Shown: piece by piece, positions 1 to 13,545 of the stretch | How the letters are laid out: each line of letters begins with the position of its first letter | How positions within the stretch are numbered: the stretch's first letter is position 1 | NCBI GenBank assembly: GCA_000513055.1 | Contig: AZYB01000001.1 | Span: 4,715-68,714, forward strand | Origin: an alpha proteobacterium SCGC AAA288-N07 | GTDB lineage: Bacteria; Pseudomonadota; Alphaproteobacteria; Pelagibacterales; Pelagibacteraceae | DNA length: 64,000 nt | Direction of reading: 5' to 3' | Program-made: the position numbers and the translations under genes | Notes under the pieces: model-generated | Seen by the model: the letters and a program-made list of their open reading frames with translations, nothing else | The model's database searches: none | Told to the model about the DNA's origin: nothing

Positions 1-1
1 T

Positions 2-106
2 GGTTGGGGTTTAAGTTGGCAAGGACAACAGTTTATACTAGGTTTATTAATTATACCAATGGTAGCTCTATACGCTAGATCGCCACACATTAGATCGCAA
101 ATATAA
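2..106 (+). CDS. 3' end of a gene entering from the left edge; hydrophobic C-terminus, product unknown (probably a membrane protein)
   Basis: Frame 2 is open from the window edge to TAA at 104-106 (GWGLSWQGQQFILGLLIIPMVALYARSPHIRSQI*). Convergent with the MBL gene. Too short to identify. Confidence 0.3.
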   Translation, partial: GWGLSWQGQQFILGLLIIPMVALYARSPHIRSQI

Positions 107-144
107 ATGGAAGCAACAATTAATTTTTCTAAAAAAAATAAAAT

Positions 145-999
145 TTAATCGTAGTAAAACATAGGTGCTTTTTTCCAATCAAGCCAGGAAACTGGATCAT
201 GACCCCAAACGACTTTTGCATCGTGTTCTTTTGCTACCCTTCTTAATTTTTTAACTGATTCTGCTGCATCAGAAGAAGAAGAGGCAAGTCCAGGTAGACA
301 TTTATCACACCAATGATCTCCTGTATAACAAGCATCTCCAGTAAATAACATATGACCAGTTTTTGGAAGATTAACCAGTACAGATTGGTGACCAGGAGTA
401 TGTCCTGGTGTAAATATTAATTTTATAACTCCATCACCATACACATCATAAAAATCAGTTTTTCTAGCCTGCAAGAATTTCCAACGAATATTTGGTTTAT
501 CAAAATCTGCTCTGATATAGGCCGGACCAGAAAACCAATCAGGATTAAATGCATAATCGTATTCTAATCTTTGTGTAATATGAGTAGCATTTGGAAAATG
601 TCCTATTGCACCTGAATGATCTAGATGAAGATGAGTTTGTATCACGTACTTGATATCTTCAGGTTTTGTATTTACAGTTTTTATCATATCTCTACACCAT
701 TCTGATACTTTCATTACTGGGTCATAGGCTTCGACCACAGAACCCCAATGTTTATGTTTGTCAATAGCTGCTTCTATTGGCATTCCACCATCAATAATAA
801 CGTCACCCTCAGGATGTTTAATTAAAAACCATGGCACAGGTATTTCATAAGGTTCATCGCTGTGATTCATTTTTATAAATTTTAATTTCGTTTTAATTGA
901 TCCTGTTTGAAACATATATAACCTAATACCTGAATTAAATTTTTTAGTTTGTTCAAAAATGTCTTTGTTTTTTTCTTGCATAAATATCTGCTCTACCAA
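145..999 (-). CDS. MBL-fold metallo-hydrolase, lactonase-like (AiiA/AttM-type family)
   Basis: 284-aa ORF with the HxHxDH zinc signature (THLHLDHSG), plus TPGHTPGH and later GD/HD ligand-like positions. Last gene of the co-directional cluster. Start overlaps the ADH stop by 7 nt; the Met codon at 979-981 is an alternative start. Confidence 0.7.
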   Translation of the reverse strand: MVEQIFMQEKNKDIFEQTKKFNSGIRLYMFQTGSIKTKLKFIKMNHSDEPYEIPVPWFLIKHPEGDVIIDGGMPIEAAIDKHKHWGSVVEAYDPVMKVSEWCRDMIKTVNTKPEDIKYVIQTHLHLDHSGAIGHFPNATHITQRLEYDYAFNPDWFSGPAYIRADFDKPNIRWKFLQARKTDFYDVYGDGVIKLIFTPGHTPGHQSVLVNLPKTGHMLFTGDACYTGDHWCDKCLPGLASSSSDAAESVKKLRRVAKEHDAKVVWGHDPVSWLDWKKAPMFYYD

Positions 1000-2162
1000 G
1001 CTGCCTGATAAATGTTAAAAGCATCTGCTTCCTTTACTTCTCTCGGATTATTAACTAATAGCCTTGTTTGTTTCATTGCATCACGCGCCATTTTTTCACA
1101 CGCATTTTTTGGTATATCAACTTCCCTTAATTTTTGTGGCAAACCTAATCTCTTTGATAATTCTTCCATCCTGTCAATAAATTCCGCACTGACCGCTTGG
1201 GCTCCTCTATCAGTATTTAAATCTGGAAAAACATAAGGTGCTAGTTCGGCATAATCTTTTGCTGCTTTTGCATCAATACTGTTGAATCTGAGCACATAAG
1301 GTAAAACCAAAGAATTTGAAAGTCCGTGTGAAACATGAAAAGTTCCTCCTAAAGGATATGCTAGTGCATGGACAGCTGCGACCGGAGAGTTTGCAAAAGT
1401 TTTTCCAGCAAGCATTGCTCCAATAAGCATGTTGCCTCTAGCCTCAACATTGGAACCATCTGAAACTGCCGTTTCTATTGAACCTCCAAGCAATTTAAGC
1501 GCCTCTATTGCTAACATTTTTGATATCGGGTTATTATTTTTACTGGTTGAAGCGTATCCCTCAATGGCATGTACCATTGCATCAATACCAGTTGATGCTG
1601 TAGTTCCTGAGGGCAAGCCTAATGTAAGATCCGGATCTAAAATTGCCAAATCTGGTAAAATTATTGAAGACGATACTCCTTTTTTTTCTTCTTCTCCTAT
1701 TGTAATAATTGCAACAGGTGAAACCTCAGAACCTGTTCCTGCTGTAGTGGGAACTAAAACTAGTGGCAAACGAGGTCCTTTAGCGTTTTCAACTCCCCAA
1801 GCCAATTCTAAATCTTCGTTAGAACCAAGTATTAGCGCTACAAGTTTAGCAACGTCCATGGATGATCCTCCACCAAACCCAATAACACCCGTTGCATTAA
1901 ATTTCTTTCCAATTTCTATTGCTGATAAAAGAGTCTTTCGAGATGGATCTGCTTCAACTTCGTCAAATATCTCAACTGAACTAATTTTATTAAGTTCTTC
2001 TATGGTAGGTTTAGTCAATCCTAAAGACATCAAACCTTTATCTGTTATAAAAAGTATACGAAGACCAAGTTTTTTGGAAATTTCTTTACAAGAATCTTTT
2101 GCTTGACCACTACCAAACCGAAGGCCAGGCGTTGTGTTAAAATTAAAAGAATTTAAAGTCAT
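993..2162 (-). CDS. iron-containing (family III) alcohol dehydrogenase
   Basis: 389 aa. Has the glycine-rich GFGGGSSMDVAK nucleotide site and the conserved His-rich metal region (DAMVHAIEGY, HALAYPLGG, HVSHG) typical of Fe-ADH enzymes such as FucO and 4-hydroxybutyrate dehydrogenase. Only 6 nt after the symporter gene. Confidence 0.8.
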   Translation of the reverse strand: MTLNSFNFNTTPGLRFGSGQAKDSCKEISKKLGLRILFITDKGLMSLGLTKPTIEELNKISSVEIFDEVEADPSRKTLLSAIEIGKKFNATGVIGFGGGSSMDVAKLVALILGSNEDLELAWGVENAKGPRLPLVLVPTTAGTGSEVSPVAIITIGEEEKKGVSSSIILPDLAILDPDLTLGLPSGTTASTGIDAMVHAIEGYASTSKNNNPISKMLAIEALKLLGGSIETAVSDGSNVEARGNMLIGAMLAGKTFANSPVAAVHALAYPLGGTFHVSHGLSNSLVLPYVLRFNSIDAKAAKDYAELAPYVFPDLNTDRGAQAVSAEFIDRMEELSKRLGLPQKLREVDIPKNACEKMARDAMKQTRLLVNNPREVKEADAFNIYQAAW

Positions 2163-2168
2163 AATTTT

Positions 2169-4235
2169 TTATACAAAATAAATATAGAATATCACCGAAA
2201 ATATTGCCATTCCTACAAGGATCAATATCCAACCATAGCCTGTTCCAACCTTGTCGATATAATTAACTTCTCCCTGAATTTCATCTGGCTTTTTATAAAG
2301 ATCATTTGCTAGAATTGGTTTGTTGGGCAAGGTTGATAAATCCATTTTGCTAGCTAGAAACCAAATTATTCCTATACCAAAAAGCCACCAAATAAGTTGA
2401 TATCCCCAAATAGAAGGTATTTTAAGAATCCAAGCTTCATAACCCGCTCCAGGCTCTCCAAAAAAATCATTCCCAATTATTTGTCCTGGTCCAACTGCAA
2501 AAAAAAGCCAGATCAAAACAATTACATAAGCAAAGGATCTTAGCTTTGTTCTGCTTGGATGAAGGCCCATATGATCATCTAAAAAATCATGAAACTTTTG
2601 TCTATGAGATCTATAAATATCAATTTTTGTAATATTAGAAAAAGCAGAAATAGAAAAACAAACAAACACATTAAATAACAATCCCCATACTCCAGAGTGT
2701 ATTGTTAGCGGCCATCTTCCCCAGGGCAACCTGTTACCAGTAATTTGTTGTCCTATAGTTTCTGTTAAAATAACTATAATTATTCCAATAATTAATCCAA
2801 ATGTTGCCGCTCCTTTTGTTATCCAAGGAAACCAAATTAGGCCTAGTAAAACAATTAAAAACTGGAATGCTATAGAAATTGCTATGCCACTAAAAATCAC
2901 CATTGCCGGTTTAGCAAATGTTGCTATATAAAGTGAGGCCAAAAATATTAACATCATTATTATACGAGCGACCGCACGTTCCTTTTCCCAACTTACGTTT
3001 TGATTAACATAAACTTTATATAAATCTCTTGTGACAATACTTCCGGATGTCATTAAAAGTGCGGCGGATGTTGACTGGAGAGCTGCAATCAATCCTACTC
3101 CTAACAAACCAGTTAACCAGACAGCATGCTTATCCATTAAGCTTATAATGTGATAAATTATTAGGGAGTGATCCTTATTAGAAACTTCTGGCAATAAAGT
3201 ATTTACAGAAAGACCGCTATTATTGATATCTGCATTGGCCCCTAGTAAACTTGCTCCAATTCCTTGATATGTTGTAAATATAAATAATAATAAACCTACA
3301 ATAACAGCAGATCCCCAAATCTGATAATAAGAAAAAGCTTTTGGATGTTTTACAGAATAACTCCACATAGAAAAAGAAGGCGAAAGAACTATTCCCATAA
3401 ATGAAATTGTAAAAGTAAAAATCATCATTGCTGTCCAAGGGCCACCCACTGCTTCATTCTTTCCTAGTCCTGCCACCCATTGAATGACACCTGGCAAAGC
3501 AAAATAGCTATTATAATCACCACCTCCATAGCCATTGGTGTTTCCCCAACTGCTTACTGATGTGCTGGCTATTTTTGCTAATGATTTACCAAAAGTTTCA
3601 ATATCTCCTACAAAAAAATAAACAATAATTCCCAAAAGAATTATAGTTAAAAAATAAAGCCAAGATTGAACCACCCCTATACTGACAATAGATTTAAATC
3701 CTCCCCTTGTTACATAAAACAAAACAATTAAAGAAATCACCCACATACTAAGTTCTCTAGAAACATATCCTGCTGTTAATGTGTTTACTAAATAGCCTGT
3801 AGCACCAAAAAAAACTGCTAATAGAGGTATTGCTATAAATAAAGTTACCAATACTGAAATAACACGAATTGTATCACTTTTATAATAATCATAATACATT
3901 TCGCCCGGCGTAATATATCCAAACTTTCTACTTAACATCCATTGTCTTTTAAAAAAAAATACACTTCCTAAAGGAACAGTTATGGCAATAAAAGCTGTAC
4001 CGACATACTGAAAACCATCGTGAAAAACAAGACTAGTTTGAGATATTACTGTTAGTCCGGCAAATGTGGCGGTAGTGGCTGCGAAAAAAAAAACCCATGA
4101 AGAAATATTTTTGTTTGCTAAATAATATCTTTCTGGATTTTCAGAATTATATCTTGATCCCCTTACGCCCCAAAAAAAACAATAAACAGCGTACAACAAT
4201 AAAAAAATAAATAACCAAAGAGTTTTTTCGGACAT
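2169..4235 (-). CDS. sodium:solute symporter (SSS) family transporter with a C-terminal membrane extension
   Basis: 688 aa and strongly hydrophobic throughout. The first ~520 aa resemble SSS-family proteins (e.g. TRGGFKSIVSIGVVQS). A further ~160 aa contain 3-4 additional hydrophobic helices. Confidence 0.7.
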   Translation of the reverse strand: MSEKTLWLFIFLLLYAVYCFFWGVRGSRYNSENPERYYLANKNISSWVFFFAATTATFAGLTVISQTSLVFHDGFQYVGTAFIAITVPLGSVFFFKRQWMLSRKFGYITPGEMYYDYYKSDTIRVISVLVTLFIAIPLLAVFFGATGYLVNTLTAGYVSRELSMWVISLIVLFYVTRGGFKSIVSIGVVQSWLYFLTIILLGIIVYFFVGDIETFGKSLAKIASTSVSSWGNTNGYGGGDYNSYFALPGVIQWVAGLGKNEAVGGPWTAMMIFTFTISFMGIVLSPSFSMWSYSVKHPKAFSYYQIWGSAVIVGLLLFIFTTYQGIGASLLGANADINNSGLSVNTLLPEVSNKDHSLIIYHIISLMDKHAVWLTGLLGVGLIAALQSTSAALLMTSGSIVTRDLYKVYVNQNVSWEKERAVARIIMMLIFLASLYIATFAKPAMVIFSGIAISIAFQFLIVLLGLIWFPWITKGAATFGLIIGIIIVILTETIGQQITGNRLPWGRWPLTIHSGVWGLLFNVFVCFSISAFSNITKIDIYRSHRQKFHDFLDDHMGLHPSRTKLRSFAYVIVLIWLFFAVGPGQIIGNDFFGEPGAGYEAWILKIPSIWGYQLIWWLFGIGIIWFLASKMDLSTLPNKPILANDLYKKPDEIQGEVNYIDKVGTGYGWILILVGMAIFSVIFYIYFV

Positions 4236-4251
4236 TTAATCCTTTTTAAAT

Positions 4252-4620
4252 TTAGGTACAACGCCTTGGTGCTGATTCACCTCGCTCTTTTTTAATTCTT
4301 TCTGCTTCTTTCTGTGCCGTTTCAATTGAAGGAAAAACTTTATCTTCGTACAAAATAAATGGTTTAGCTCTGTCAGCATTAAGTTGGGCTACGCACCATT
4401 CTTTACCAGGTTTAGTACACATTACCATGTATGCCCCTGGTATCGGACCGTATTTTCTATTATTTAAAACAAAAAGACATTCTGCAAGATCATTAAGTTT
4501 GTCTTTATCCAAATTGTTTAAAGCAATTTTTTCTAAATCATTTATGGAAGTGACGTTATCAGAACCAAGTATTCCTTTACCGTCGGTACCAGTTGGTCTA
4601 CTTATTTCTACTTTTGACAT
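4252..4620 (-). CDS. small protein, possible second (paralogous) dimethylformamidase small-subunit-like protein
   Basis: 122 aa. Its ATG overlaps the stop of the large-subunit gene (TAATG at 4618-4622). The C-terminal half (PIPGAYMVMCTKPGKEW...KPFILYEDKVFPSIETAQKEAERI) aligns loosely by eye with the C-terminal half of the 138-aa protein at 7000-7416. Confidence 0.45.
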   Translation of the reverse strand: MSKVEISRPTGTDGKGILGSDNVTSINDLEKIALNNLDKDKLNDLAECLFVLNNRKYGPIPGAYMVMCTKPGKEWCVAQLNADRAKPFILYEDKVFPSIETAQKEAERIKKERGESAPRRCT

Positions 4621-6977
4621 TATGGTAATGGCCCTTCCTTTAAAAATCCTCTAATTGCGTTTTCTAAAATTTTAGATACGTTATTGTTGTAATTATTGTA
4701 AGATAAACTTCCACACCATGATAATGATCCAGGTGCGAACAAAGCTCCATCTTTTGGTGTTTTATAGTAAATCATATCAGCTCTAACCATTGGGTTTTCA
4801 GTACCTCCTCCATAAAAACCTCTCACTGAAAAATGAATTTCTTCATTAACTTGTAGCATTAAGTTTGTATGATTTTCAGATCTTGCTAATAAATAAGCGT
4901 TGTGTGGTGTTCCAAAATCTAAATCATATCTATCTAATTCAAGACCAGCTGCTCCACCTCCTACTAGACCAAAATCTCCTATTATTTCGTCTTCTCCCAC
5001 GCCTTCAAAAATCCACGAACATTCTGGTCTCTTACTATCTGGTTCTCTTTTATAATATGAAGAAACATCAAATCCATAAGCAGTAAATGTTAAACCACAT
5101 ACTTTTGAAGGTATTCTTCCACGCGCACGCCACATACCACCATATTTTCCATCAAAAGCATTATTGTATTCCCCGGGATTTGCTGTCCAAGCTCTTGTTC
5201 CGGCTTCACCTTTTCTTACCTCAATAATATTTGTATTGTCCGGGTGATATTCACTAATCCAATAAAAACCATCTGAACCTAAATATATCCATCTCCCACC
5301 GTTTAATTGATAGGACTCATATGCTGCTAACATTTTTTCAGAACTATATTCTGGATGTGAACCAGTTAGTACACATTGGTAACGATTCAACAAATCAACA
5401 CCTTCTATATGTAAATCTTCATCAGTAACAACATCAAAATCAAAATTCTTTTCCTCTAACCAATCAGTTAAATGTAGGTCTGCATTTAATTGCCATAAAG
5501 ATGGAGATAACCAGTGTCTATATTTTGGTCTCATATTAAGTATAGGTCTTAATCTTGAAGAAATAGCTACACCAGTTCCATCAGAGTGTTTTGAATAAGT
5601 TGATAGTCCATATTCTCTGTGTTCATTAAGATACAAATCTGAAGCTGCTAAAACTGGAACCTTTCCAGCAAGTAATTGAGCAACTACTGAATTTGTTCCT
5701 AGGTTGTCGTTTGAATAAGCCATATAACTATTTGAAGGAAGTACGAATAAAAGTTTTGAAGTTGTTTTACCTTTTGGTGGTTTTATTACAAAAGGAACAA
5801 AATCTTCGGTCTCAGGAGAATCTTCTCCATTAATTCTTAACCTTGCAGCATAAACTCCACTTTTAATAAGGTCTGGAATATCAAAAGTAAAATCAACTTC
5901 CCATCTTGCATCATCTATGTCGTCATCGTGAAAATGAATTGCTCCATATTCTTCGGGTTTGTGGTGATATACCATCTCATCTGCAGTCCAATTATATCCT
6001 GTCATTCCTCTATTAGGTAAATTAATAATAAAACCATTTAGGTGATTTGAAGTTGTGTCAATTATAAAAGTAGAAGCTATATTTTTAGTAATATTTGCGT
6101 GAAAATCCCAAGCGCCAATAACTTCAGATCTTAACTCTGATGTGCAACCACCATAACCTCTTGCTAAAGATTCGATCTCAGCTTTTGATAGAGCTTTTCT
6201 ACTTAGTCTTGGTCTATCAATCTTTCCATTGTAAGTTAAAGTTTGTTCTGGTAATTCGACTGGTACAGTAGCTTCTTTGTAATGTCCTCCTTGAATATGT
6301 CTTCCTGTACGATCTACAAGAGTACATGCGGCCATTAAAAAAGGCGTCATGTTTGCTCGTGGTTTTAAATTGCTCGTTGTTTCAACAACAGAAGTAGTTT
6401 CATCAGCCGGGTGCAACAAAGACATTCCCAATCCACCATTTGTGGGTGTAACGCAAGGTTCTTGATAAAGTTTTACTTTTCCTGTTTCAGCATCATAGCT
6501 TACTGCAATAAGGTACCAGACTTTGGCCATTAATTTTTTTTCACTAGACAAATTTGTAACTTGTCCAGCTCCATCACCTATCATTACTGAAAGACAAGCT
6601 TTTTCATCAATAAAAAGGCCATAACCACTTTTTTCAGTTTCATTCCATTTTGTTAAAAGACCTTGCTTTCCTTTATCCGGAGTTGTTGGAAATATATATG
6701 CCTGCAAGGTAAAGCTTTTTGCATTTAATCTTTCGTCATGAGGGATAACAACATAAGATCCTCCATGGATTCTTTGGTTTCTTCCTTTATAGGTTTTATT
6801 ACATTGTGCTCCAGTTTCCTCTTCTTTGTATCCTGGTCCTTCCGGGTTTGTATCTCCATGAATTAATCTTATAATTTGAACATCATAATCTTCATTTTTT
6901 TCAGAATTAATATAAAACTTAACTTTTTCTCCAGGAAACGCAGAGTATTTGTCGCTGTAGCCAGTAATTCTTAACAT
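4620..6977 (-). CDS. N,N-dimethylformamidase large (beta) subunit-like amidohydrolase
   Basis: 785 aa. Full-length resemblance to my recollection of DmfA2: N-terminal RLIHGDTNPEGPGYKEE, then WDFHANI, EEYGAIHFHDDDIDDARWE, LTGSHPEYSS, GLVGGGAAGLELDRYD and C-terminal SLSWCGSLSYNNYNNNVS. Confidence 0.8.
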   Translation of the reverse strand: MLRITGYSDKYSAFPGEKVKFYINSEKNEDYDVQIIRLIHGDTNPEGPGYKEEETGAQCNKTYKGRNQRIHGGSYVVIPHDERLNAKSFTLQAYIFPTTPDKGKQGLLTKWNETEKSGYGLFIDEKACLSVMIGDGAGQVTNLSSEKKLMAKVWYLIAVSYDAETGKVKLYQEPCVTPTNGGLGMSLLHPADETTSVVETTSNLKPRANMTPFLMAACTLVDRTGRHIQGGHYKEATVPVELPEQTLTYNGKIDRPRLSRKALSKAEIESLARGYGGCTSELRSEVIGAWDFHANITKNIASTFIIDTTSNHLNGFIINLPNRGMTGYNWTADEMVYHHKPEEYGAIHFHDDDIDDARWEVDFTFDIPDLIKSGVYAARLRINGEDSPETEDFVPFVIKPPKGKTTSKLLFVLPSNSYMAYSNDNLGTNSVVAQLLAGKVPVLAASDLYLNEHREYGLSTYSKHSDGTGVAISSRLRPILNMRPKYRHWLSPSLWQLNADLHLTDWLEEKNFDFDVVTDEDLHIEGVDLLNRYQCVLTGSHPEYSSEKMLAAYESYQLNGGRWIYLGSDGFYWISEYHPDNTNIIEVRKGEAGTRAWTANPGEYNNAFDGKYGGMWRARGRIPSKVCGLTFTAYGFDVSSYYKREPDSKRPECSWIFEGVGEDEIIGDFGLVGGGAAGLELDRYDLDFGTPHNAYLLARSENHTNLMLQVNEEIHFSVRGFYGGGTENPMVRADMIYYKTPKDGALFAPGSLSWCGSLSYNNYNNNVSKILENAIRGFLKEGPLP

Positions 6978-6999
6978 ATTAACCTTTCAATAATAGTAA

Positions 7000-7416
7000 T
7001 CATTCTCCGTACTTTTCTAAAAGTTCCAAAATTCTTTTTAAAAAAATTGCGTGCTCACAGGCTTCTTCTGAAGAGAAAGGATCGTTTAAAATTTTTACAG
7101 GTTGACCTCTTACTCCACTGCAAACTCCAATCCTGTAATCTTTAAAATCTTTTTTGCATACAGTTATGTATTTTCCAGCCATTGGTTGTCTTCTTAATTT
7201 GTCTAAAACAGTTCTTAATTCTTTGCTATGTTCAACTCCTGGCTGTCCTTTATGAAGTGCAGGAGCTTTACCAACTGGGCATGCTCTATGTTCTTCAATT
7301 AATCGATTTCTGGTTTTTTCATCTCTTAATAAAGGCAAGACATATTTGCGAGTTATAAAATCATCCGTACTTGTATGTCCTTGATTTAATTGTACTCCCG
7401 TTTTATCTTTAGTCAT
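7000..7416 (-). CDS. N,N-dimethylformamidase small (alpha) subunit-like protein
   Basis: 138 aa, located 22 nt upstream of the large-subunit gene as in dmfA1-dmfA2 operons. The C-terminal region QPMAGKYITVCKKDFKDYRIGV...FSSEEACEHAIFLKRI matches the pattern I recall for DmfA1 (QP..G.Y.I....W..YRI...F.tEEEA.HA.FLrRI). Confidence 0.6.
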   Translation of the reverse strand: MTKDKTGVQLNQGHTSTDDFITRKYVLPLLRDEKTRNRLIEEHRACPVGKAPALHKGQPGVEHSKELRTVLDKLRRQPMAGKYITVCKKDFKDYRIGVCSGVRGQPVKILNDPFSSEEACEHAIFLKRILELLEKYGE

Positions 7417-7431
7417 TATTACTCTCCAAAA

Positions 7432-8286
7432 TTACTTGTTGGTCCTTTCTTTAATAATTTTTAACGCTTCCATTAAATAAACACGAAATACTTCATGATT
7501 TTCGCTCATTGGAAAATGTCCTATATCAGTCATTTCTATATAAACTCCTCCTTTTATTTGTCGGGCTGTATTTTCAGTTGCTTCTGGAGGTGTTAGATAA
7601 TCATATGTTCCTGTTAACATAACAACAGGACACTTATGTCCATCAATATTTTTTAATTCTTTTCTTAGATCATGATCAACTGAGTAAAAATATAAATCTC
7701 CCTTAAATGCTTCTGAGCCTTGAGTATAATAGTGCCAAGTCAACCATCTGTCTTTTTCTGGTGATTGTGGTGCCATAAGGTCCCATGTTCCACTTGCACA
7801 AACTTGAGCCGCATTTGCATGAGGATGACGCCACCAATCCAAATAAAAACCAGGAGCATAATCTGCTGCCTCTACTGGTATGACTGCTCTAAATTTATTT
7901 GGATAACGCAAGGCTAATTGTAAAGCTACATTTCCACCAAAAGAAGAACCCATAAAAATAGGTTTTTGCAAACCTAAGGCTTCACATAATTTTAGAATAA
8001 AATTACAATAATGTTCAGCTGTTAATTTGTATTCTTCCTTCCACCATTCTTTGTTATGTGGGGGATCTGACTTTCCATGTCTTGGTAAATCGTAAGCAAT
8101 AACATTGTAGTCTTTAGTAATTTCTTTATCTTCAAGTAAACCTCTCCATTGATGATTGTGACATCCAGCTGTATGTTGGCAAATTAAAGGTATTCCTTTT
8201 CCATTTTGTAAATAGAAAACCTTATATTCACAATCATCAACTTCAATCGTAACATAGCGGCCTACGACTTCGTGATGCACTACCAT
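7432..8286 (-). CDS. alpha/beta-fold hydrolase
   Basis: 284 aa. Nucleophile elbow GSSFGG (GxSxG), a candidate acid in LTGTYDY and a candidate His in DIGHFP. Size and layout are typical of the alpha/beta hydrolase fold. Confidence 0.75.
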   Translation of the reverse strand: MVVHHEVVGRYVTIEVDDCEYKVFYLQNGKGIPLICQHTAGCHNHQWRGLLEDKEITKDYNVIAYDLPRHGKSDPPHNKEWWKEEYKLTAEHYCNFILKLCEALGLQKPIFMGSSFGGNVALQLALRYPNKFRAVIPVEAADYAPGFYLDWWRHPHANAAQVCASGTWDLMAPQSPEKDRWLTWHYYTQGSEAFKGDLYFYSVDHDLRKELKNIDGHKCPVVMLTGTYDYLTPPEATENTARQIKGGVYIEMTDIGHFPMSENHEVFRVYLMEALKIIKERTNK

Positions 8287-8317
8287 TATAATGCTCCTTT
8301 TAATTCAAAATAATTCA

Positions 8318-8707
8318 TTAAACTGGTACTCCTATTTTTCTTAGTAATTCAAACTGAACAGTAAAATTTCTTAAATTTTTCATTAAAATCAAATGATTGC
8401 CCTCAATTTTTAAATCTCTTAAAAAACTTGCAGCCCATATTCCGTGATACATTGGTTTTGGAACGGGTTGCCCAAATTCTTTCCAAGTTTTTGCAGAAGC
8501 TCTAAGAGCAAAATCATAAGGATCCAAAGGTGATGGTTTCGTATTTATGTTTTTAACTTTGCCATCATGCATTTCGATAATTGCTTTTGCATTTTCCATA
8601 TCGAACATAAAGGAACAAGTATAATATTTTGCCATAGCCTTAATAGTTTCATCGCTATTAGTAACCTCTTCATATTTCTTTGCCCAATTATCTAACTCAC
8701 TACTCAT
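8318..8707 (-). CDS. SCP2 (sterol/lipid carrier)-like small protein
   Basis: 129 aa. Overall pattern resembles SCP-2 sterol-transfer domains (alpha-rich N-terminus, FDM...II.M.DGKV, ...LKIEGN..L..KL). Called by eye only. Confidence 0.4.
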   Translation of the reverse strand: MSSELDNWAKKYEEVTNSDETIKAMAKYYTCSFMFDMENAKAIIEMHDGKVKNINTKPSPLDPYDFALRASAKTWKEFGQPVPKPMYHGIWAASFLRDLKIEGNHLILMKNLRNFTVQFELLRKIGVPV

Positions 8708-8722
8708 AATATTTTACTTTCG

Positions 8723-8987
8723 TTACTTAGAACTTTTGCTTCCTTTAGTTGGATCTTTATCAAAATTCATATGATAATCTTTTTTAGGATTTTCATAATC
8801 GCCAAGAATATTTCTGATATTGCTTATCTCTCCAGGATGCATGCCAATTTCTTTAAGCAAATGATCTAGAAATGGTTGGTGTGCTCTATAACGTAATGCA
8901 GAACTAACTACGCTATCTGCTAAATTGCCACTTCTTCCAGATCCACCACCTTGAGTGCCTGCAGTTACTGCTTCACCACTGCCCCCC
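8723..8987 (-). pseudogene. out-of-frame C-terminal continuation of the flotillin gene
   Basis: The listed 126-aa ORF (8723-9103) overlaps the flotillin 3' end in another frame. From the G6 run onward it encodes a Gly-rich linker followed by NLADSVVSSALRYRAHQPFLDHLLKEIGM. This looks like the usual YqiK/flotillin C-terminus rather than an independent protein. Confidence 0.6.
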
Positions 8988-10706
8988 TGAACCAGAAGTT
9001 CCACTAAAGCCAGGTAAACCATTAACATCAACAATTTTAATATCTCCAATGTTCGCCATCGGTTTAACACTTTCTCTAATGATTGCTTCAATTTTTTCAG
9101 CAAGTTTTAATCTTAAAGCACTTCTTCTGCTTGCATCACTTCTCAAGTTCTCAGCAGCATTTAATGCTTCCTTACCAGCAGCATCTATCTCATATCTTAG
9201 TTTTGCTGCCAAAGTTGCAAATCTATCCTGTTCGGCTTTTGAAGCAGCAGTGATGACATCAACTTTCTTAATACCTTGGGCTTTTTCAACGTACATAGCT
9301 GAGTTCGCTTTTTCTTCAGCTTCTACTGCTCTAGCTCTAGTAACCTGTTCTTCAGCTTTAGATTTTAAAACTTGTTTAGATTTATTTATAACTTCAAGAT
9401 TTTTTTGATGTTCTTCTATACTTAATCTTTTCGTTTTATCTATATCAAGAAGTCTTGTTTCTCTTTCTGACTCAATTCTGTGAGCATCTAGATTTCTTTG
9501 TTGAGCAATTTTAGCATTTTTAATATCTTGTTCAGAAATTATTTGTGCTTCCTCAGCATCTTTTTGTCTTTCAGACTGTTCTTTAATTATAGTAGCTTTC
9601 TCTTGTGCCCGTTTCACATCAACGAGTCTTTGTTTTTCTAAACGTGCATACTCACTTTCTTTATCTAATTTTAAAATCTTAACTTCTGTCTCAAGATCTT
9701 TTTGCCTAATTTCATACGCCGAATTTTTCTCTAATTCGTTTTGTTCTTTTCGACGTTTTTCAATTTCTTCGATCAATCTTGTTTCTGTTAGTTTTTTTTC
9801 AACTTCAATAACCTGATTTTGCGAAATTTTTGCAACTTCAATTTGTTCTTGACTGCTTATTTCAGCTTCCTCAGCTTCACGTTCTTTTTCTGCTCTTTGT
9901 TTAACAGTTTCAGTTCTTTCTTTGGCTTTTTGAATGGCAATTTCTCTTTCTTGTTTGTATCTAGAAAATTCTTCGTTCTTCTTAATTTCTAGTTCTTTTT
10001 GAATCGTTTCTAAATTTTTACTTTCAATTGAAACTCTTGTATCTTGTGAAATAGCGTTTCTTTTTTTCTTTCTAGACTCAATTTGTTCAGTTAATTGTGT
10101 TAAACCTTGAGAATCAAAAGTATTTGCAGGATTAAACTGTTCGATTGGAGTTTGATCCAAAGATATAATAGAAACTGTTTCTAGTGCTAAACCTGTATGT
10201 CCTATCGATGCATCTGCAATTTTTGTAACATCTTTTACAAACTGTCCTCTATTTTCTTGTATTTCATCCAGTGTCATTTTTGCAGCAACTTCCCCTAGCG
10301 CATCTGCAAAACGACCTTGTACTACCTCTCTTAAATGTTCAGGATCAAGAGTTCTGTTACCTAAAGTTTGTGCAGCAGTTGCTACGGCTTTTTGTTCAGG
10401 TGGAACTTTTGTAAAAAATTCCGTAACTAGTTCTGCTCTCATTCGGTCTTTTGTTATCAAAGATTTGTCTCCACTTCTTTTTATAGTTATGCTCAGAGTA
10501 CGCATTCCCACTTGAGTTATGTTGTGAATTATAGGTAAGACAAAGGCTCCTCCCGATATAACTACTTTCTCACCAAGCATTCCTGTACGTACAAATGAAA
10601 CTTCCTTAGATGATCTTCTGTATAACCAATGCAATAGATAAACTATAATCGCTATTGCAAGTGCTAGTAGAATTATTGCTGCTATTATATCTGCTCCTCT
10701 AGTCAT
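8973..10706 (-). CDS. flotillin / SPFH (band 7) family protein (YqiK-like), apparently truncated by a frameshift
   Basis: 577 aa. N-terminal membrane anchor (IIAAIILLALAIAIIVYLL), SPFH core (VRTGMLGEKVVISGGAFVLPIIH...), and a long E/K/Q/A-rich coiled-coil region. Ends just after a G6 homopolymer (8982-8987). Starts 18 nt after the rhodopsin stop. Confidence 0.8.
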   Translation of the reverse strand: MTRGADIIAAIILLALAIAIIVYLLHWLYRRSSKEVSFVRTGMLGEKVVISGGAFVLPIIHNITQVGMRTLSITIKRSGDKSLITKDRMRAELVTEFFTKVPPEQKAVATAAQTLGNRTLDPEHLREVVQGRFADALGEVAAKMTLDEIQENRGQFVKDVTKIADASIGHTGLALETVSIISLDQTPIEQFNPANTFDSQGLTQLTEQIESRKKKRNAISQDTRVSIESKNLETIQKELEIKKNEEFSRYKQEREIAIQKAKERTETVKQRAEKEREAEEAEISSQEQIEVAKISQNQVIEVEKKLTETRLIEEIEKRRKEQNELEKNSAYEIRQKDLETEVKILKLDKESEYARLEKQRLVDVKRAQEKATIIKEQSERQKDAEEAQIISEQDIKNAKIAQQRNLDAHRIESERETRLLDIDKTKRLSIEEHQKNLEVINKSKQVLKSKAEEQVTRARAVEAEEKANSAMYVEKAQGIKKVDVITAASKAEQDRFATLAAKLRYEIDAAGKEALNAAENLRSDASRRSALRLKLAEKIEAIIRESVKPMANIGDIKIVDVNGLPGFSGTSGSGGQW

Positions 10707-10724
10707 AAATTATTTCTCCCAAAT

Positions 10725-11423
10725 TTAAGTTGCTTTCTTTGTATCGTTTAAAGCAGCGCCGTAGATTATCATTCCAAAAATGATTTTGTTTAATATGTCT
10801 GCTAAGTTGTAAATAATGTTTAAACTGTTAATGTTTGCGCCTCCGGCCAAGTGCTCAATAAAATATCCTATATGGTAAATTGAGAAACCTATGGTTATAA
10901 TCAATCTATTTGCAAAGAATGCCATTTGAACACTTTCATTGTTACAAGAAGCATTTTGTCTTCCTGCATCTCCCATGTAAAGTTCGCCAATAATATAAAG
11001 CCAACCAACAATACCTACTAAAAAGCCAAGAGTAACACTCATATATCCATAAGCTCCTAATAGCTGGGCTATAACCCAGACTAATGTTCCCACAAGCAGT
11101 CGCCAGAACATTCCTCTCTTAACGTTAGTAACCGACTTAAGCATTACGTAAAAAGTTAAAATCGTGAGCGGGAAAGTTAATATCCAATCAATATATCTTA
11201 AAGCTGTAGGTGCCTGACCATTCAAAACCCATAAATTTTTTGCATAGAGATAATGTATAGAGGACATTAGAGCTATTACCCCCACAAGATTCATTGCCGT
11301 TCCCCATCTGTTCGACAGACGGCCTCTCTCTAAGAAGAAAAATATCGCCGCTCCTATCATTGCAACCGAAATTAACCAAAAAGATCCTCCGACGACGTCC
11401 TGTGGCAGCAATAATTTGTTCAT
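10725..11423 (-). CDS. microbial (type 1) rhodopsin, divergent proteorhodopsin paralogue with a D-T-T motif
   Basis: 232 aa with 7 hydrophobic helices. Aligns along its whole length with green proteorhodopsin: SFWL, FFFLER, IHYLY, RYIDWILTFPL, NLADILNKIIFG with the Schiff-base Lys at residue 213. The donor position is Thr. No signal peptide. AAGGA SD-like sequence upstream of the ATG. Confidence 0.85.
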   Translation of the reverse strand: MNKLLLPQDVVGGSFWLISVAMIGAAIFFFLERGRLSNRWGTAMNLVGVIALMSSIHYLYAKNLWVLNGQAPTALRYIDWILTFPLTILTFYVMLKSVTNVKRGMFWRLLVGTLVWVIAQLLGAYGYMSVTLGFLVGIVGWLYIIGELYMGDAGRQNASCNNESVQMAFFANRLIITIGFSIYHIGYFIEHLAGGANINSLNIIYNLADILNKIIFGMIIYGAALNDTKKAT

Positions 11424-11690
11424 GATTTCCTTTTCAGACTTTTTTTTTATTTTTTTCTATTAAAATTGTATTTTTTATACAAATCAATAAAATAAAATTT
11501 GATTTAAGTAAAAAATATTTCAAAATCTTTTAAAATACCTCTAAAAAAAATTTATTTTTTTAACAATTCAATTAACACTAGAATTTTTTTAAAATTGTTT
11601 TTTTTGGTTTAAGTTAAGCAACGGATGGGTTGTTTATAATTTTAAAATTCCACTTCGTTAAATATTTATTATCTATATTATTATGCTTGA

Positions 11691-12329
11691 ATGCTTTCTA
11701 AAGTCATAACAATAGCGCAACAAAAAGGAGGTACGGGAAAAACAACTTTGGCAGTGCATTTGGCTCTGGCTTTAATAAAATACCATAATCTAAAAATTGT
11801 TATTATTGATACCGATCCACAAGGAAGTCTTGGTAAGTGGTATATTATTCGTTCAGAAAAAAAACTTTCAAACGACAATTTAACTTTTAAAACTGCCAGT
11901 TTATGGGGGGCTCAGTATGAGTCAAAAGCATTAAAAAAAGATCATGATATTGTAATTATAGATACTCCACCGAAAATTGAATCTGATGCACGTCCATCTA
12001 TTGAAGCTGCAGATTTAGTTTTAATACCAATGACACCTTCTCATGTTGATTTTTGGGCTACTGAAGCAATTGTAGAGATTGCAAAAAAAGCAAATAAAAA
12101 AATATTAATACAAATCAACAGAGCTAATCAACGATCTAAACTTATAAGTAAGACAAATGAATATATTAAAAGTATAAATCTTTCACCAACCCAAACAATA
12201 GTTGGACATCGACAAATTTTTGCATCATCTATGGGGGAAGGTAAAACTGCAGTGGAAAAACAAAAAAAAGGTAAAGCTGTAGAAGAAATAAAAAAGCTAA
12301 CAGAACAAATTCTATTAGAATTAAAATAA
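11691..12329 (+). CDS. ParA/MinD-family P-loop ATPase (small, orphan ParA-like)
   Basis: 212 aa. Deviant Walker A QKGGTGKTT near the N-terminus, plus IIDTDPQGS and IIDTPP motifs. No parB-like gene follows. Confidence 0.8.
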   Translation: MLSKVITIAQQKGGTGKTTLAVHLALALIKYHNLKIVIIDTDPQGSLGKWYIIRSEKKLSNDNLTFKTASLWGAQYESKALKKDHDIVIIDTPPKIESDARPSIEAADLVLIPMTPSHVDFWATEAIVEIAKKANKKILIQINRANQRSKLISKTNEYIKSINLSPTQTIVGHRQIFASSMGEGKTAVEKQKKGKAVEEIKKLTEQILLELK

Positions 12330-12415
12330 TTTTATCATTTAAAATTTATTGGCGTAATTTAAATCTATGTTGCAATTTTTATATCCTTCTATAATGGTAT
12401 TTATATAGCTTTTAG

Positions 12416-12489
12416 GAGGTTTCTTAATAAAATATTTATTCATCATATAAATGAGGTTTCTTAATAAAATATTTATTCATCATATAAAA
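12416..12489. repeat. 37-bp tandem duplication (2 copies, 36/37 identical)
   Basis: Copy 1 at 12416-12452 is gaggtttcttaataaaatatttattcatcatataaat. Copy 2 at 12453-12489 is identical except for the last base. Covers the 3' end of the GGCT-like ORF. Confidence 0.95.
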
Positions 12490-12783
12490 CATAATTTTTT
12501 TTCCATCCAAATAAAAATATTCTTTCTGATATGTGTCAGGAAATTCTTCATAACGATCTAATATTTTTTCATGTTTTTTTGTAATTTCCCATATTGCACC
12601 AGGTACTTTGAACCCTTTTTTTTTAATAACATTTGCATATCCAAATTTATTTTCTATATTTGAATGACAAAATGATAATTTGTAATCTTTAAGAAAAGTT
12701 GTCTTTAAATAATTCGACCCAACACATCGAATATTTTTCATCTGATGATGATTAAGATTGCTACCATAAGCAAAATATAACAT
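12436..12783 (-). CDS. gamma-glutamylcyclotransferase (GGCT/AIG2-like) family protein, C-terminus altered by the duplication
   Basis: 115 aa. N-terminal YFAYGSNL motif of the GGCT fold. The ORF terminates inside copy 1 of the 37-bp duplication. Confidence 0.65.
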   Translation of the reverse strand: MLYFAYGSNLNHHQMKNIRCVGSNYLKTTFLKDYKLSFCHSNIENKFGYANVIKKKGFKVPGAIWEITKKHEKILDRYEEFPDTYQKEYFYLDGKKIMFYMMNKYFIKKPHLYDE

Positions 12784-12786
12784 TGA

Positions 12787-13545
12787 TTAATCTTGTTTAA
12801 TTAATTCAATTTTTTTAAAATTAACAAATTTTAATATTTGTTCATTGCAAATATTAATTTTTGATTCTTCTTCAGATCTTAAAACTATAACGACTCCAAT
12901 TTTTCCCGCTCTAAAAAAGGGATAGCTGCCTATTTCAACTTCTTCATTATTTTCTTGAACTTCTTTTAGTGATATAGCAATTTCACTTTCCACAGTTCTT
13001 AAATTAATTGTCTTAGTCAATAGTTTTTTACCACCAGAAATTTTATCGTTTATTCCTGACAACATAGACTGAAGTATAGAGGGAACTCCTGGTAAACAAA
13101 AAACATTTTCAACGGAAAAACCAGGTGCTCCGCTTGTTGGATTGTAAATTAAAATTGCTTTTGAAGGCATCATAGCCATCTTCTGTCTTCCTTTATTAAA
13201 TTCTCCAGGTTTATAATATTTTTCCAAAATATTGAAAGCTTCGTGATGAATTTCGTAATTTAAATTAAATGCCTTTGATATTGACTCAGCTGTTATATCA
13301 TCATGAGTAGGTCCAATTCCTCCGGTTGTAAAAACATAGTTAAATTTTTTTCTTAGTTCATTAACGCAATCAATAATCTTATTTTCTTTATCGGTAATAA
13401 TTCTGACTTCATCAACCCTTACACCCACCTTATTAAGCCAGATTGAAAGATGAGAAAGATTAACTTCCTGGGTTCTTCCAGATAAAATTTCATTACCAAT
13501 TATAATTATTGCAGCAGTTATTTTATTTGATTTGTTATTTATCAT
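12787..13545 (-). CDS. CinA-like / molybdopterin-binding (MoCF-BD) domain protein
   Basis: 252 aa. IIIIGNEILSGRTQEVN and TTGGIGPTHDDIT motifs typical of the CinA N-terminal/MoCF biosynthesis domain. Confidence 0.7.
   Translation of the reverse strand: MINNKSNKITAAIIIIGNEILSGRTQEVNLSHLSIWLNKVGVRVDEVRIITDKENKIIDCVNELRKKFNYVFTTGGIGPTHDDITAESISKAFNLNYEIHHEAFNILEKYYKPGEFNKGRQKMAMMPSKAILIYNPTSGAPGFSVENVFCLPGVPSILQSMLSGINDKISGGKKLLTKTINLRTVESEIAISLKEVQENNEEVEIGSYPFFRAGKIGVVIVLRSEEESKINICNEQILKFVNFKKIELIKQD

Follow-up and report, generated by a model that had tools for sequence, protein, structure and literature searches.

A flotillin-associated rhodopsin gene pair and its gene cluster in a Pelagibacteraceae genome

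What does an opsin that lacks its proton donor do beside a flotillin gene? This question is raised by a 64,000-nucleotide stretch of DNA from the alpha proteobacterium SCGC AAA288-N07 (Pelagibacterales, Pelagibacteraceae; assembly GCA_000513055.1, contig AZYB01000001.1, positions 4,715 to 68,714 of the forward strand; hereafter the window), in which a rhodopsin gene encoding a seven-transmembrane-helix (7-TM) opsin of 232 aa (10725..11423, minus strand; Pfam Bac_rhodopsin, E=6.8e-26) is followed on the same strand by a flotillin frame opening at 10706. The pair is an already known, published system, of which the window holds one more copy: the flotillin-associated rhodopsins (FArhodopsins; FAR), proteorhodopsin paralogues of Pelagibacterales, HIMB59 and Pseudothioglobus with a flotillin gene always directly after them (Haro-Moreno et al. 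2023, mSystems, PMC10308929), which were first sighted as 'DTT-T' rhodopsins (Olson et al. 2018, PMC5864233). The original prediction for this locus, made from the sequence alone, had pointed to such a paralogue clade and supposed that the pairing would not be new and its function still open; the clade exists (PMC10308929), the window gene belongs to it, and both suppositions are borne out by the literature. Regarding function, we consider it rather probable that a retinal-free opsin is the membrane partner of a flotillin scaffold and heads a transporter and amidase operon, the scaffold-partner step having, in our analysis, about an even chance of being right.

Identity of the rhodopsin and its linkage to flotillin

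When all PDB sequences were searched, the best match of the window rhodopsin was 9r21, entered as 'flotillin-associated rhodopsin' (PsFAR of Pseudothioglobus; Kovalev et al. 2025, bioRxiv 10.1101/2025.04.29.651185, also in Structure), with E=6.2e-88 and 298 bits. Residues 1-229 were aligned with zero gaps at 59% ungapped identity, and because the alignment is gapless, PsFAR numbering is valid for the window rhodopsin and is used below. The best proteorhodopsin match was 4jq6 (E=2.2e-57), with at most 198 bits for any proteorhodopsin, and the ungapped identity to Med12 blue proteorhodopsin (BPR) was 39%. An AlphaFold2 model, for which 42 diverse homologues served as input, had a pLDDT of 91.5; its top Foldseek matches were the two PsFAR structures, 9r23 and 9r21 (TM score 0.95), and the TM score to PsPR was 0.94. 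The FArhodopsin grouping is based on these search scores, identities and Foldseek ranks, not on a phylogenetic tree.

The key residues of the window rhodopsin are S54, H57, R76, D79, T83, F84, T87, T90, W116, Q120, F180, H184, D209 and K213. Motif residues D79, T83 and T90, together with T87 at the tuning site and the Schiff-base lysine K213, make up DTT-T with the lysine kept. The proton-donor position is thus occupied by Thr (T90), which confirms that the protein is 'donor-less' as predicted; since the donor is missing, the rhodopsin is not a bioenergetic pump, and this part of the prediction was also borne out. The N-terminus is short, with residue 8 pairing with residue 27 of the full-length BPR/GPR chains 4kly and 8cqc; FArhodopsins are described as having an N-terminus that is shortened (about 23 aa) against the paralogous proteorhodopsin and is free of a leader (PMC10308929). 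Proteorhodopsin pumps (Med12 BPR, 4jq6; GPR, 7b03) share with the window protein the 7-TM fold (TM score 0.9), the Arg/Asp/Lys core and the Pfam family, but differ by a donor Glu in place of Thr, V84 in place of Phe, G120 in place of Gln, and a signal-peptide-like N-terminal extension; they also have no flotillin linkage (PMC10308929). No second rhodopsin was found by tblastn within the 64-kb window.

In common with the Pelagibacterales FAR cluster, the window has the DTT-T motif, the lysine, the short N-terminus, the adjacent downstream flotillin and an AT-rich upstream spacer. Its rhodopsin is 91-97% identical to those of many SAR11 single-cell genomes, including the reference AG-390-L03 (95%), and a look-up of the exact sequence found no identical protein on record. 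On every testable feature the sequence places the protein in the SAR11 DTT-T FArhodopsin subclade, and this identity is near certain.

The predicted tandem arrangement, with the two genes 18 nt apart on the same strand, was confirmed from open reading frames (ORFs) and Pfam matches. The intergenic spacer (10707..10724, minus strand; ATTTGGGAGAAATAATTT) contains GGGAG, a Shine-Dalgarno sequence for flotillin, and the reference single amplified genome of the FArhodopsin paper has a 16-nt spacer followed by a 1,977-bp flotillin gene (PMC10308929). The pair had been called co-translated, which overstates the case because flotillin has its own Shine-Dalgarno sequence in the spacer; what the literature shows is co-transcription, with metatranscriptome reads spanning both genes (PMC10308929). 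No terminator-like site was found between rhodopsin and flotillin by a consensus scan of 4000-12500.

The original prediction had proposed checking whether orthologous rhodopsins always lie next to a flotillin gene. Scanning GTDB with one genome per species gave 59 loci with relatives of the window rhodopsin, and flotillin was directly downstream on the same strand in all 59. The spacer between the two genes was 12-22 nt in most SAR11 loci (modal length 18 nt, with AGGAGG inside) and 30-67 nt in more distant taxa. A search of a large protein collection yielded 1,909 relatives, from which five divergent metagenome relatives (53-61% identity; L064-L068) were chosen on long contigs and inspected for neighbours; in each of them a Band_7+Flot gene of 666-684 aa lay immediately downstream of the rhodopsin. 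Combined, flotillin was adjacent in 64/64 related loci spanning 53-97% identity and covering SAR11, other Alphaproteobacteria and Gammaproteobacteria, and unlinked orthologues were not observed among them. The surroundings of these loci are rearranged while the pair stays constant, and the pairing is far beyond chance. Pairwise distances of rhodopsin and flotillin were tightly correlated, with r=0.98 for the complete set of loci and r=0.82 when SAR11 was taken by itself, values higher than those of either protein against the downstream hydrolase (r=0.61-0.67). Such a correlation fits co-inheritance and is compatible with co-evolution, and adjacency alone could yield much of it.

Several of these loci extend the known distribution of the system. 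Candidatus Pelagibacter sp. Uisw_094 (NZ_CP159823.1) carries the FAR-flotillin cluster, with FAR at 6001-6690 and an intact flotillin gene; the strain is a cultured Arctic Pelagibacter with a closed genome (PMC12509534), which dates the 2023 statement that no isolate has the cluster (PMC10308929) and makes experiments in a native host conceivable. Clusters were also present in metagenome-assembled genomes (MAGs) labelled Rhizobiaceae, Poriferihabitaceae, Hyphomicrobiales, Chromatiales and Rhodobiaceae (L053-L057 and L064), on contigs of up to 5.25 Mb from large, non-streamlined genomes; their FAR type is Pseudothioglobus-like (DTL/H84/E120). The host range is therefore wider than the three marine taxa named in 2023 (PMC10308929). 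A further subgroup (L049-L051) came from MAGs that bear the label Alphaproteobacteria or Proteobacteria, the isolate name of one including 'casp150'. It has a D-N-V/I motif, F84, F116 and E120, and is thereby distinct from the HIMB59 DNI type, for which the literature gives Gly120 and Trp137.

The retinal pocket

PsFAR is a colourless homopentamer, solved by cryo-EM (9r21/9r23), in which H84 occupies the space of the retinal polyene chain and E120 that of the ionone ring (bioRxiv 10.1101/2025.04.29.651185). Among the PsFAR forms, retinal was bound only by the H84V/E120G double mutant, in which M116 and P184 must shift to let retinal in; the FArhodopsin clade as a whole is characterised by an aromatic side chain at position 84 and by Ser rather than Ala at position 54 (bioRxiv 10.1101/2025.04.29.651185). 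The window rhodopsin shares S54, R76, D79, T83, D209 and K213 with PsFAR and, like it, places a bulky aromatic side chain at 84 and a long polar one at 120. It differs by F84 instead of H84, Q120 instead of E120, T90 instead of M90 and H57 instead of F57, and further by W116, F180 and H184. These last three residues belong to the SAR11 subclade, and M, W and P are found at the same positions in both PsFAR and proteorhodopsins. Position 180 aligns with the Trp of the WxxYP motif in helix F, which is kept in PsFAR and in Med12 proteorhodopsin; we take a Trp at this position to line the retinal pocket in rhodopsins.

The window signature was common to all 48 SAR11-type loci compared. Among the 120 best homologues, position 84 was bulky (H, F, R, W, Q or I) in 119, and Glu at position 90 never occurred, the exception in both cases being P0216, which lies on a 3-kb metagenome contig (L069). 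With V84, E90 and G120 and no flotillin downstream, this sequence was considered as a retinal-competent FAR control and rejected. Its first ~80 residues nearly match the window FAR, after which it continues as an ordinary DTE proteorhodopsin. Probably an assembly error fused the two parts at the conserved RYIDW stretch; natural recombination is the less likely origin, and the sequence is weak evidence at most.

Because W116, F180 and H184 add to F84 and Q120, we infer that the SAR11-type pocket is at least as closed as that of PsFAR, being occluded by F84 and Q120, with S54 as a clade feature; judged by its residues, it looks even more filled and less rhodopsin-like. A passage of the FArhodopsin paper likewise describes a SAR11 model in which retinal clashes with four conserved residues (PMC10308929). 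When expressed in Escherichia coli, SAR11 DTT-T proteins formed no pigment and illumination left the pH unchanged, also after an N-terminus had been grafted on, and working pumps that were mutated to DTT-T lost their pumping (PMC5864233). In the water column, DTT-T SAR11 rhodopsins dominate at 200-1000 m at Station ALOHA (PMC5864233). Going by its pocket residues, the window opsin almost certainly cannot bind its light-absorbing pigment. The predicted light response is thus unsupported, in view of the colourless relatives (PMC5864233; PsFAR) and of a pocket predicted to be blocked by F84, Q120, W116, F180 and H184.

Other opsins that do without retinal have been reported, namely betaproteobacterial Rh-noK and the lysine-less haloarchaeal opsins (cited in PMC10308929). 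The window opsin would resemble them in having lost chromophore binding and in being under selection beside a working rhodopsin, and is unlike them in that it keeps the lysine and blocks the pocket; those opsins also have no flotillin linkage.

The flotillin frameshift and the surrounding gene cluster

The flotillin gene had been taken as one gene running from 10706 to 8723. It is not: a +1 frameshift was overlooked, and 8723 is the end of a second piece. The N-terminal frame (8973..10706, minus strand, 577 aa; Pfam Band_7 1.1e-09 and Flot 8.8e-19, profile positions 2-85 of 124) is closed by a premature TGA at 8973-8975, and the C-terminal part, about 86 codons that match Flot profile positions 77-124 (8723..8983, minus strand), sits out of frame in an overlapping ORF (8723..9103). 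The insertion lies in a G6 homopolymer at 8982..8987 (minus strand); with one G less in this run, both pieces fuse into a 660-aa flotillin, and tblastn with the repaired protein recovered the two window pieces in frames -3 and -1. Pfam, hydropathy and composition indicated a membrane anchor at about residues 5-27, an SPFH/Band_7 domain at 40-183, a charged coiled-coil region (47% E/K/R/Q in residues 201-520) and the start of the Flot domain. The match to the NCBIfam FloT model was weak (26 bits against a cut-off of 700), so the protein is not an equivalog of Bacillus subtilis FloT, and a PDB sequence search with the repaired flotillin gave no matches.

At the frameshift site the closest homologue (L021) reads TCA-GGAGGC and the window reads TCAGGGGGGC; the site is a Gly/Ser linker in which the homologues have in-frame indels only. 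All 54 homologues of full length (1932-2082 bp) encode flotillin in a single frame. No gene other than flotillin is split in the 64-kb window, although the window contains 468 A/T runs of at least 6 bases, which argues that the assembly is not generally frameshift-prone. An error-prone long-read assembly in general is therefore an unsupported cause, and a single local error is possible. The out-of-frame tail has zero internal stops and shows more synonymous than non-synonymous changes against 10 homologues, so that the frameshift is either recent or an artefact. Programmed frameshifting or transcriptional slippage at the G6 run found no support: no homologue has the run in that register, and hence it is not a conserved recoding site. 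The C-terminus of flotillin stabilises the oligomeric cage in the mammalian complex whose structure has been solved (PMC11260169), which means that a real truncation would probably matter; should the frameshift be genuine, flotillin would be without its C-terminal oligomerisation segment and this strain would probably have an impaired module. As a separate observation, the FArhodopsin gene itself seems to be frameshifted in RIS_SAG_27 (L052, 1225-1919), where two tblastn pieces meet at 1731.

The published FAR cluster comprises about 26 kb, with ten same-strand genes after a long spacer (PMC10308929). Likewise, the window contains a string of ten same-strand genes between 145 and 11423, eight of them downstream of flotillin, and shares with the published cluster a ten-gene string that includes SCP2-like, alpha/beta-hydrolase, dimethylformamidase, Na+ symporter and iron-containing alcohol dehydrogenase (Fe-ADH) genes. 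It is unlike the published cluster in its frameshifted flotillin and in the flank beyond the ParA-like gene described below, and it covers only about 11.7 kb of the ~26 kb, the remainder being cut by the window start. The GC content of the string is 34.6% against 29.5% in the rest of the window, a contrast that fits a genomic island.

Directly after flotillin, a two-gene cassette was identified. Its first gene (8318..8707, minus strand) encodes a 129-aa, possibly SCP2-like protein with a sub-threshold Pfam SCP2 match (E=0.078, 13.8 bits, cut-off 21.3); 5 of 10 diverse members match this family, the best with 0.016. A PDB profile search found no relative of this protein, and its AlphaFold2 model, made from a shallow alignment with only close SAR11 relatives in the best 120, was unusable (pLDDT 48.9). 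The second gene (7432..8286, minus strand) encodes an alpha/beta-hydrolase of 284 aa with a GSSFGG nucleophile motif (Pfam Abhydrolase_1, 5.2e-23). The two genes follow flotillin in every sufficiently long SAR11 or distant locus of the first comparison, and the cassette is present in 3/5 of the divergent clusters, being missing from L065 and L068. The 77-86% identity between SAR11 and MAGs labelled Rhizobiales and Chromatiales had made the two proteins candidates for FAR-specific, co-evolving partners. This was rejected, since the hydrolase still has 72-80% identity in Pseudomonas putida, Stutzerimonas, Effusibacillus, Domibacillus, Paenibacillus and Thermomonospora. Among its 1575 homologues, the best 120 were all at least 72% identical and came from Proteobacteria, Firmicutes and Actinobacteria; a gene for 129-135 aa stands directly upstream of the hydrolase also in P. 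putida, Effusibacillus and a Thermomonospora-type contig, in neighbourhoods that contain neither flotillin nor rhodopsin. Judged from these sequences, the cassette is an autonomous, highly constrained two-gene unit that occurs across phyla. The weak SCP2 assignment and the independence of the cassette together make the lipid-raft argument softer than published (PMC10308929).

The next genes on the minus strand are predicted to encode an amidase of the N,N-dimethylformamidase type: a small-subunit-like protein of 138 aa (7000..7416), which had no direct match in local Pfam and is 59-69% identical to PF26354 DMF_alpha ORFs in L065-L068; a large-subunit-like protein of 785 aa (4620..6977; Pfam DMFA2_C 1.9e-90, Laminin_G_3); and a second DMF_alpha-like small protein of 122 aa (4252..4620), 58% identical to a 122-aa ORF of L068 that itself matches PF26354 weakly. 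They are followed on the same strand by genes for a sodium:solute symporter family transporter of 688 aa (2169..4235; Pfam SSF, 4.4e-15), an Fe-ADH of 389 aa (993..2162; Pfam Fe-ADH, ADH_Fe_C), which is counted among the FAR-cluster genes (PMC10308929), and a metallo-beta-lactamase (MBL)-fold protein of 284 aa (145..999; Pfam Lactamase_B, 6.8e-25), the tenth gene of the string, which is also present in the FAR cluster L064. A dimethylformamidase-like enzyme, consisting of a large and one or two small subunits, lies beside the pair in 5/5 divergent clusters (L064-L068), and the SSF symporter was found in L049-L057 and L064-L067; an ABC transporter is upstream in 4/5 of the divergent clusters. 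Across the taxa viewed, the steadiest companions of the pair are the dimethylformamidase-like enzyme and the symporter. In L049-L051 the symporter comes directly after the hydrolase. By Pfam, no transducer, kinase, regulator or signalling gene was found in the window's part of the cluster, and the signalling module that had been suggested is accordingly unsupported. Both the independence of the hydrolase cassette and the constancy with which amidase and symporter accompany the pair go slightly beyond the 2023 paper.

Upstream, the rhodopsin gene is preceded by an AT-rich spacer of 267 bp (11424..11690, minus strand; 16.5% GC), which is likely the operon promoter and regulatory region. The placement of the rhodopsin as the promoter-proximal gene after a 267-bp spacer, at the head of a same-strand string, was correctly predicted, and long conserved spacers also flank the published FAR cluster (PMC10308929). 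Alignment with the spacers of 45 SAR11 loci revealed conserved blocks within otherwise divergent sequence. A candidate sigma-70-like promoter (11459..11487, minus strand) consists of TTGATT (11482-11487), a 17-nt gap and TTTAAT (11459-11464) and lies about 35 nt before the ATG; its positions are kept at at least 90% across the 46 spacers. It was skipped by the consensus scanner because the -10 rule of that program needs A at position 2. The scan of 4000-12500 for promoters and terminators found fewer promoter-like sites than in shuffled sequences and was uninformative for operon structure. An imperfect inverted repeat, TTCTAGTGTTAATTGAA (TTCTA-N7-TTGAA; 11567..11583, minus strand), is a candidate operator and, judged from its conservation, may bind some regulator: it occurs at the equivalent upstream position in 45 SAR11 loci, many of which have a second copy that is not in the window. 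The single copy in the window is not significant by itself (chance expectation 0.77). An Rfam scan of the whole window detected two tRNAs only and no known RNA element in the 267-bp spacer.

On the other side of the spacer, the cluster is bordered by a divergent gene for a ParA/MinD-like ATPase (11691..12329, plus strand; Pfam AAA_31, MipZ, CbiA), which is at the same place in SAR11 FAR loci (79-87% conserved) and absent from non-SAR11 ones. Past this gene, low-GC housekeeping genes begin at once in the window (compared over 11691-13545). In two other SAR11 loci (L015 of AG-390-L03 and L027 of Uisw_094, each over 1-5800), a 4HBT-type thioesterase follows ParA and then come variable genes, one locus having TauD, HD, GMC oxidoreductase and arginase and the other molybdopterin oxidoreductase and aldehyde dehydrogenase. 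The six SAR11 loci compared (these two and four others) have zero similarity to the window beyond ParA; the flank past ParA thus differs among loci, so that this side of the island is variable.

Possible role of the opsin-flotillin pair

Flotillin-type SPFH genes usually share an operon with an upstream membrane partner, and co-evolution has been described with the NfeD-type proteins YqiJ and YuaF (Hinderhofer et al. 2009, PMC2636767). SPFH proteins form cages over membrane patches, as known for flotillin and for HflK/C around FtsH (PMC11260169). By analogy, the FAR pair would operate as follows. Both proteins would be made from one mRNA. The opsin, as experiments on relatives suggest, would neither bind retinal nor pump nor sense light, and would probably be pentameric like PsFAR. 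On the cytoplasmic side, flotillin would build a cage or ring of the SPFH type around a membrane patch, with the opsin oligomer as its dedicated integral-membrane partner, either nucleating the patch or housed in it. The opsin would hold the operon position of NfeD (YqiJ-YqiK, YuaF-FloT), and its role may resemble that of FtsH inside HflK/C cages. The remaining operon would be the payload for uptake and breakdown of some small compound, comprising the Na+/solute symporter, the two-subunit dimethylformamidase-like amidase, the 129-aa/hydrolase cassette, Fe-ADH and the MBL protein, which the scaffold may organise at the membrane.

The comparison with NfeD-SPFH operons (YqiJ-YqiK in E. coli, YuaF-FloT in B. 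subtilis) includes a polytopic membrane gene immediately upstream that is co-inherited with the SPFH gene, and a mirroring of partner and SPFH trees, with r up to 0.91 in NfeD operons (PMC2636767) and 0.98 in the FAR pair. The FAR pair is unlike these operons in that the partner is a 7-TM opsin, not an NfeD protein with three hydrophobic stretches and an OB-fold domain. The likeness to HflK/C-FtsH cages is the expectation that the SPFH protein cages a membrane patch. Both likenesses are analogies of operon position, not homology.

Light could nonetheless be involved. The opsin with its flotillin might be a native light or dim-light sensor that takes up retinal or another chromophore and responds to light by rearranging the membrane, a view to which K213 and the counter-ions D79 and D209, kept in nearly all members, lend some support; the H84V/E120G form of PsFAR, moreover, binds retinal and has a slow, nearly bistable, sensor-like photocycle (bioRxiv 10.1101/2025.04.29.651185), every FAR genome also has a genuine proteorhodopsin and FAR genes come mainly from the photic zone or its vicinity (PMC10308929), and flotillin was missing from the E. 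coli tests. Yet wild-type PsFAR could not accommodate the polyene chain in any conformation (bioRxiv 10.1101/2025.04.29.651185), the SAR11 DTT-T proteins stayed pigmentless and inactive even with the grafted N-terminus (PMC5864233), and the window pocket adds W116, F180 and H184 to F84 and Q120. The lysine is missing in most freshwater relatives (PMC10308929), the SAR11 cluster includes no transducer, kinase or regulator gene, and at Station ALOHA the maximum of these genes lies at 200-1000 m, in water with negligible light (PMC5864233); a native sensor is thus highly unlikely. The published hypothesis instead places FAR and canonical proteorhodopsin together in hetero-oligomers within flotillin microdomains, where FAR would adjust or enhance the pumping of protons under dim light. 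A bona fide proteorhodopsin always co-occurs with FAR in single-cell genomes (PMC10308929), both proteins form the same type of pentamer (bioRxiv 10.1101/2025.04.29.651185), and the fold of the window model is close to PsPR (TM score 0.94). PsFAR, however, forms homopentamers whose inter-protomer contacts and central pore are unlike those of PsPR (bioRxiv 10.1101/2025.04.29.651185), and neither the window nor the cluster contains a proteorhodopsin gene, so that gene order offers no co-regulation. As the pair is steadily accompanied by genes for transport and for an amidase, and not by genes for retinal or for pumps, and the abundance at aphotic depth speaks against pump boosting (PMC5864233), we regard hetero-oligomers as unlikely.

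That unrelated membrane-protein genes are neighbours by accident has practically no probability left, being refuted by the synteny of 64/64 linked loci, by the two proteins diverging in step, and by the published co-transcription (PMC10308929). A different matter, compatible with any of the other models, is whether this particular copy is broken, that is, whether the +1 frameshift is real and flotillin lacks its C-terminal ~85 residues, as a case of loss of function or of pseudogenisation at an early stage. The split at the G6 run is the lone one in 64 kb and stands against 54/54 intact full-length homologues; FAR clusters have been lost in some populations (PMC12379486), the FAR gene is frameshifted in L052, and flotillin oligomerisation needs the C-terminus (PMC11260169). 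An extra homopolymer base, on the other hand, is a classic sequencing or assembly error, the tail is stop-free with an excess of synonymous changes, and the nine other genes of the string are intact. A broken copy is accordingly a serious possibility that falls somewhat short of being probable.

Several points weigh against the reading in which flotillin forms a scaffold with a retinal-free opsin as its partner. The contact between FAR and flotillin has no direct evidence; the PsFAR structure is without obvious flotillin-binding adaptation, and its authors left the function open (bioRxiv 10.1101/2025.04.29.651185). K213, D79 and D209 hardly vary, although a protein devoid of chromophore would not be expected to keep them; in the PsFAR structure these residues form an internal hydrogen-bond network (bioRxiv 10.1101/2025.04.29.651185). 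The failure in E. coli might reflect misfolding in the absence of flotillin (PMC5864233, PMC10308929), and the SAR11-type FAR itself has been neither purified nor solved, the occlusion of its pocket being deduced from sequence. The bacterial flotillin cage is assumed by homology, no close solved structure having been found by sequence, and the link from the scaffold to the downstream enzymes rests on gene order alone. The hydrolase cassette stands alone in unrelated bacteria, so part of the cluster may be a passenger. We nevertheless retain the composite reading as the rather probable one, with even odds for its scaffold-partner step, and the symporter and dimethylformamidase-like companions that recur across distant taxa point to a metabolic, not a light-related, role.

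The function of FAR matters because SAR11, numerically the leading group of marine bacteria, carries its genes in abundance, notably in dim or dark water. A more far-reaching and, to our mind, doubtful version of the scaffold-partner reading is that the opsin has taken over from NfeD the part of obligate membrane partner to a flotillin cage, and that the pair forms a portable membrane-compartment module which organises, by way of the Na+/solute symporter and the two-subunit dimethylformamidase-like enzyme, the uptake and hydrolysis of some small amide or ester. If this is true, FArhodopsin would be a structural part of a metabolic microdomain and would have no light-related role.

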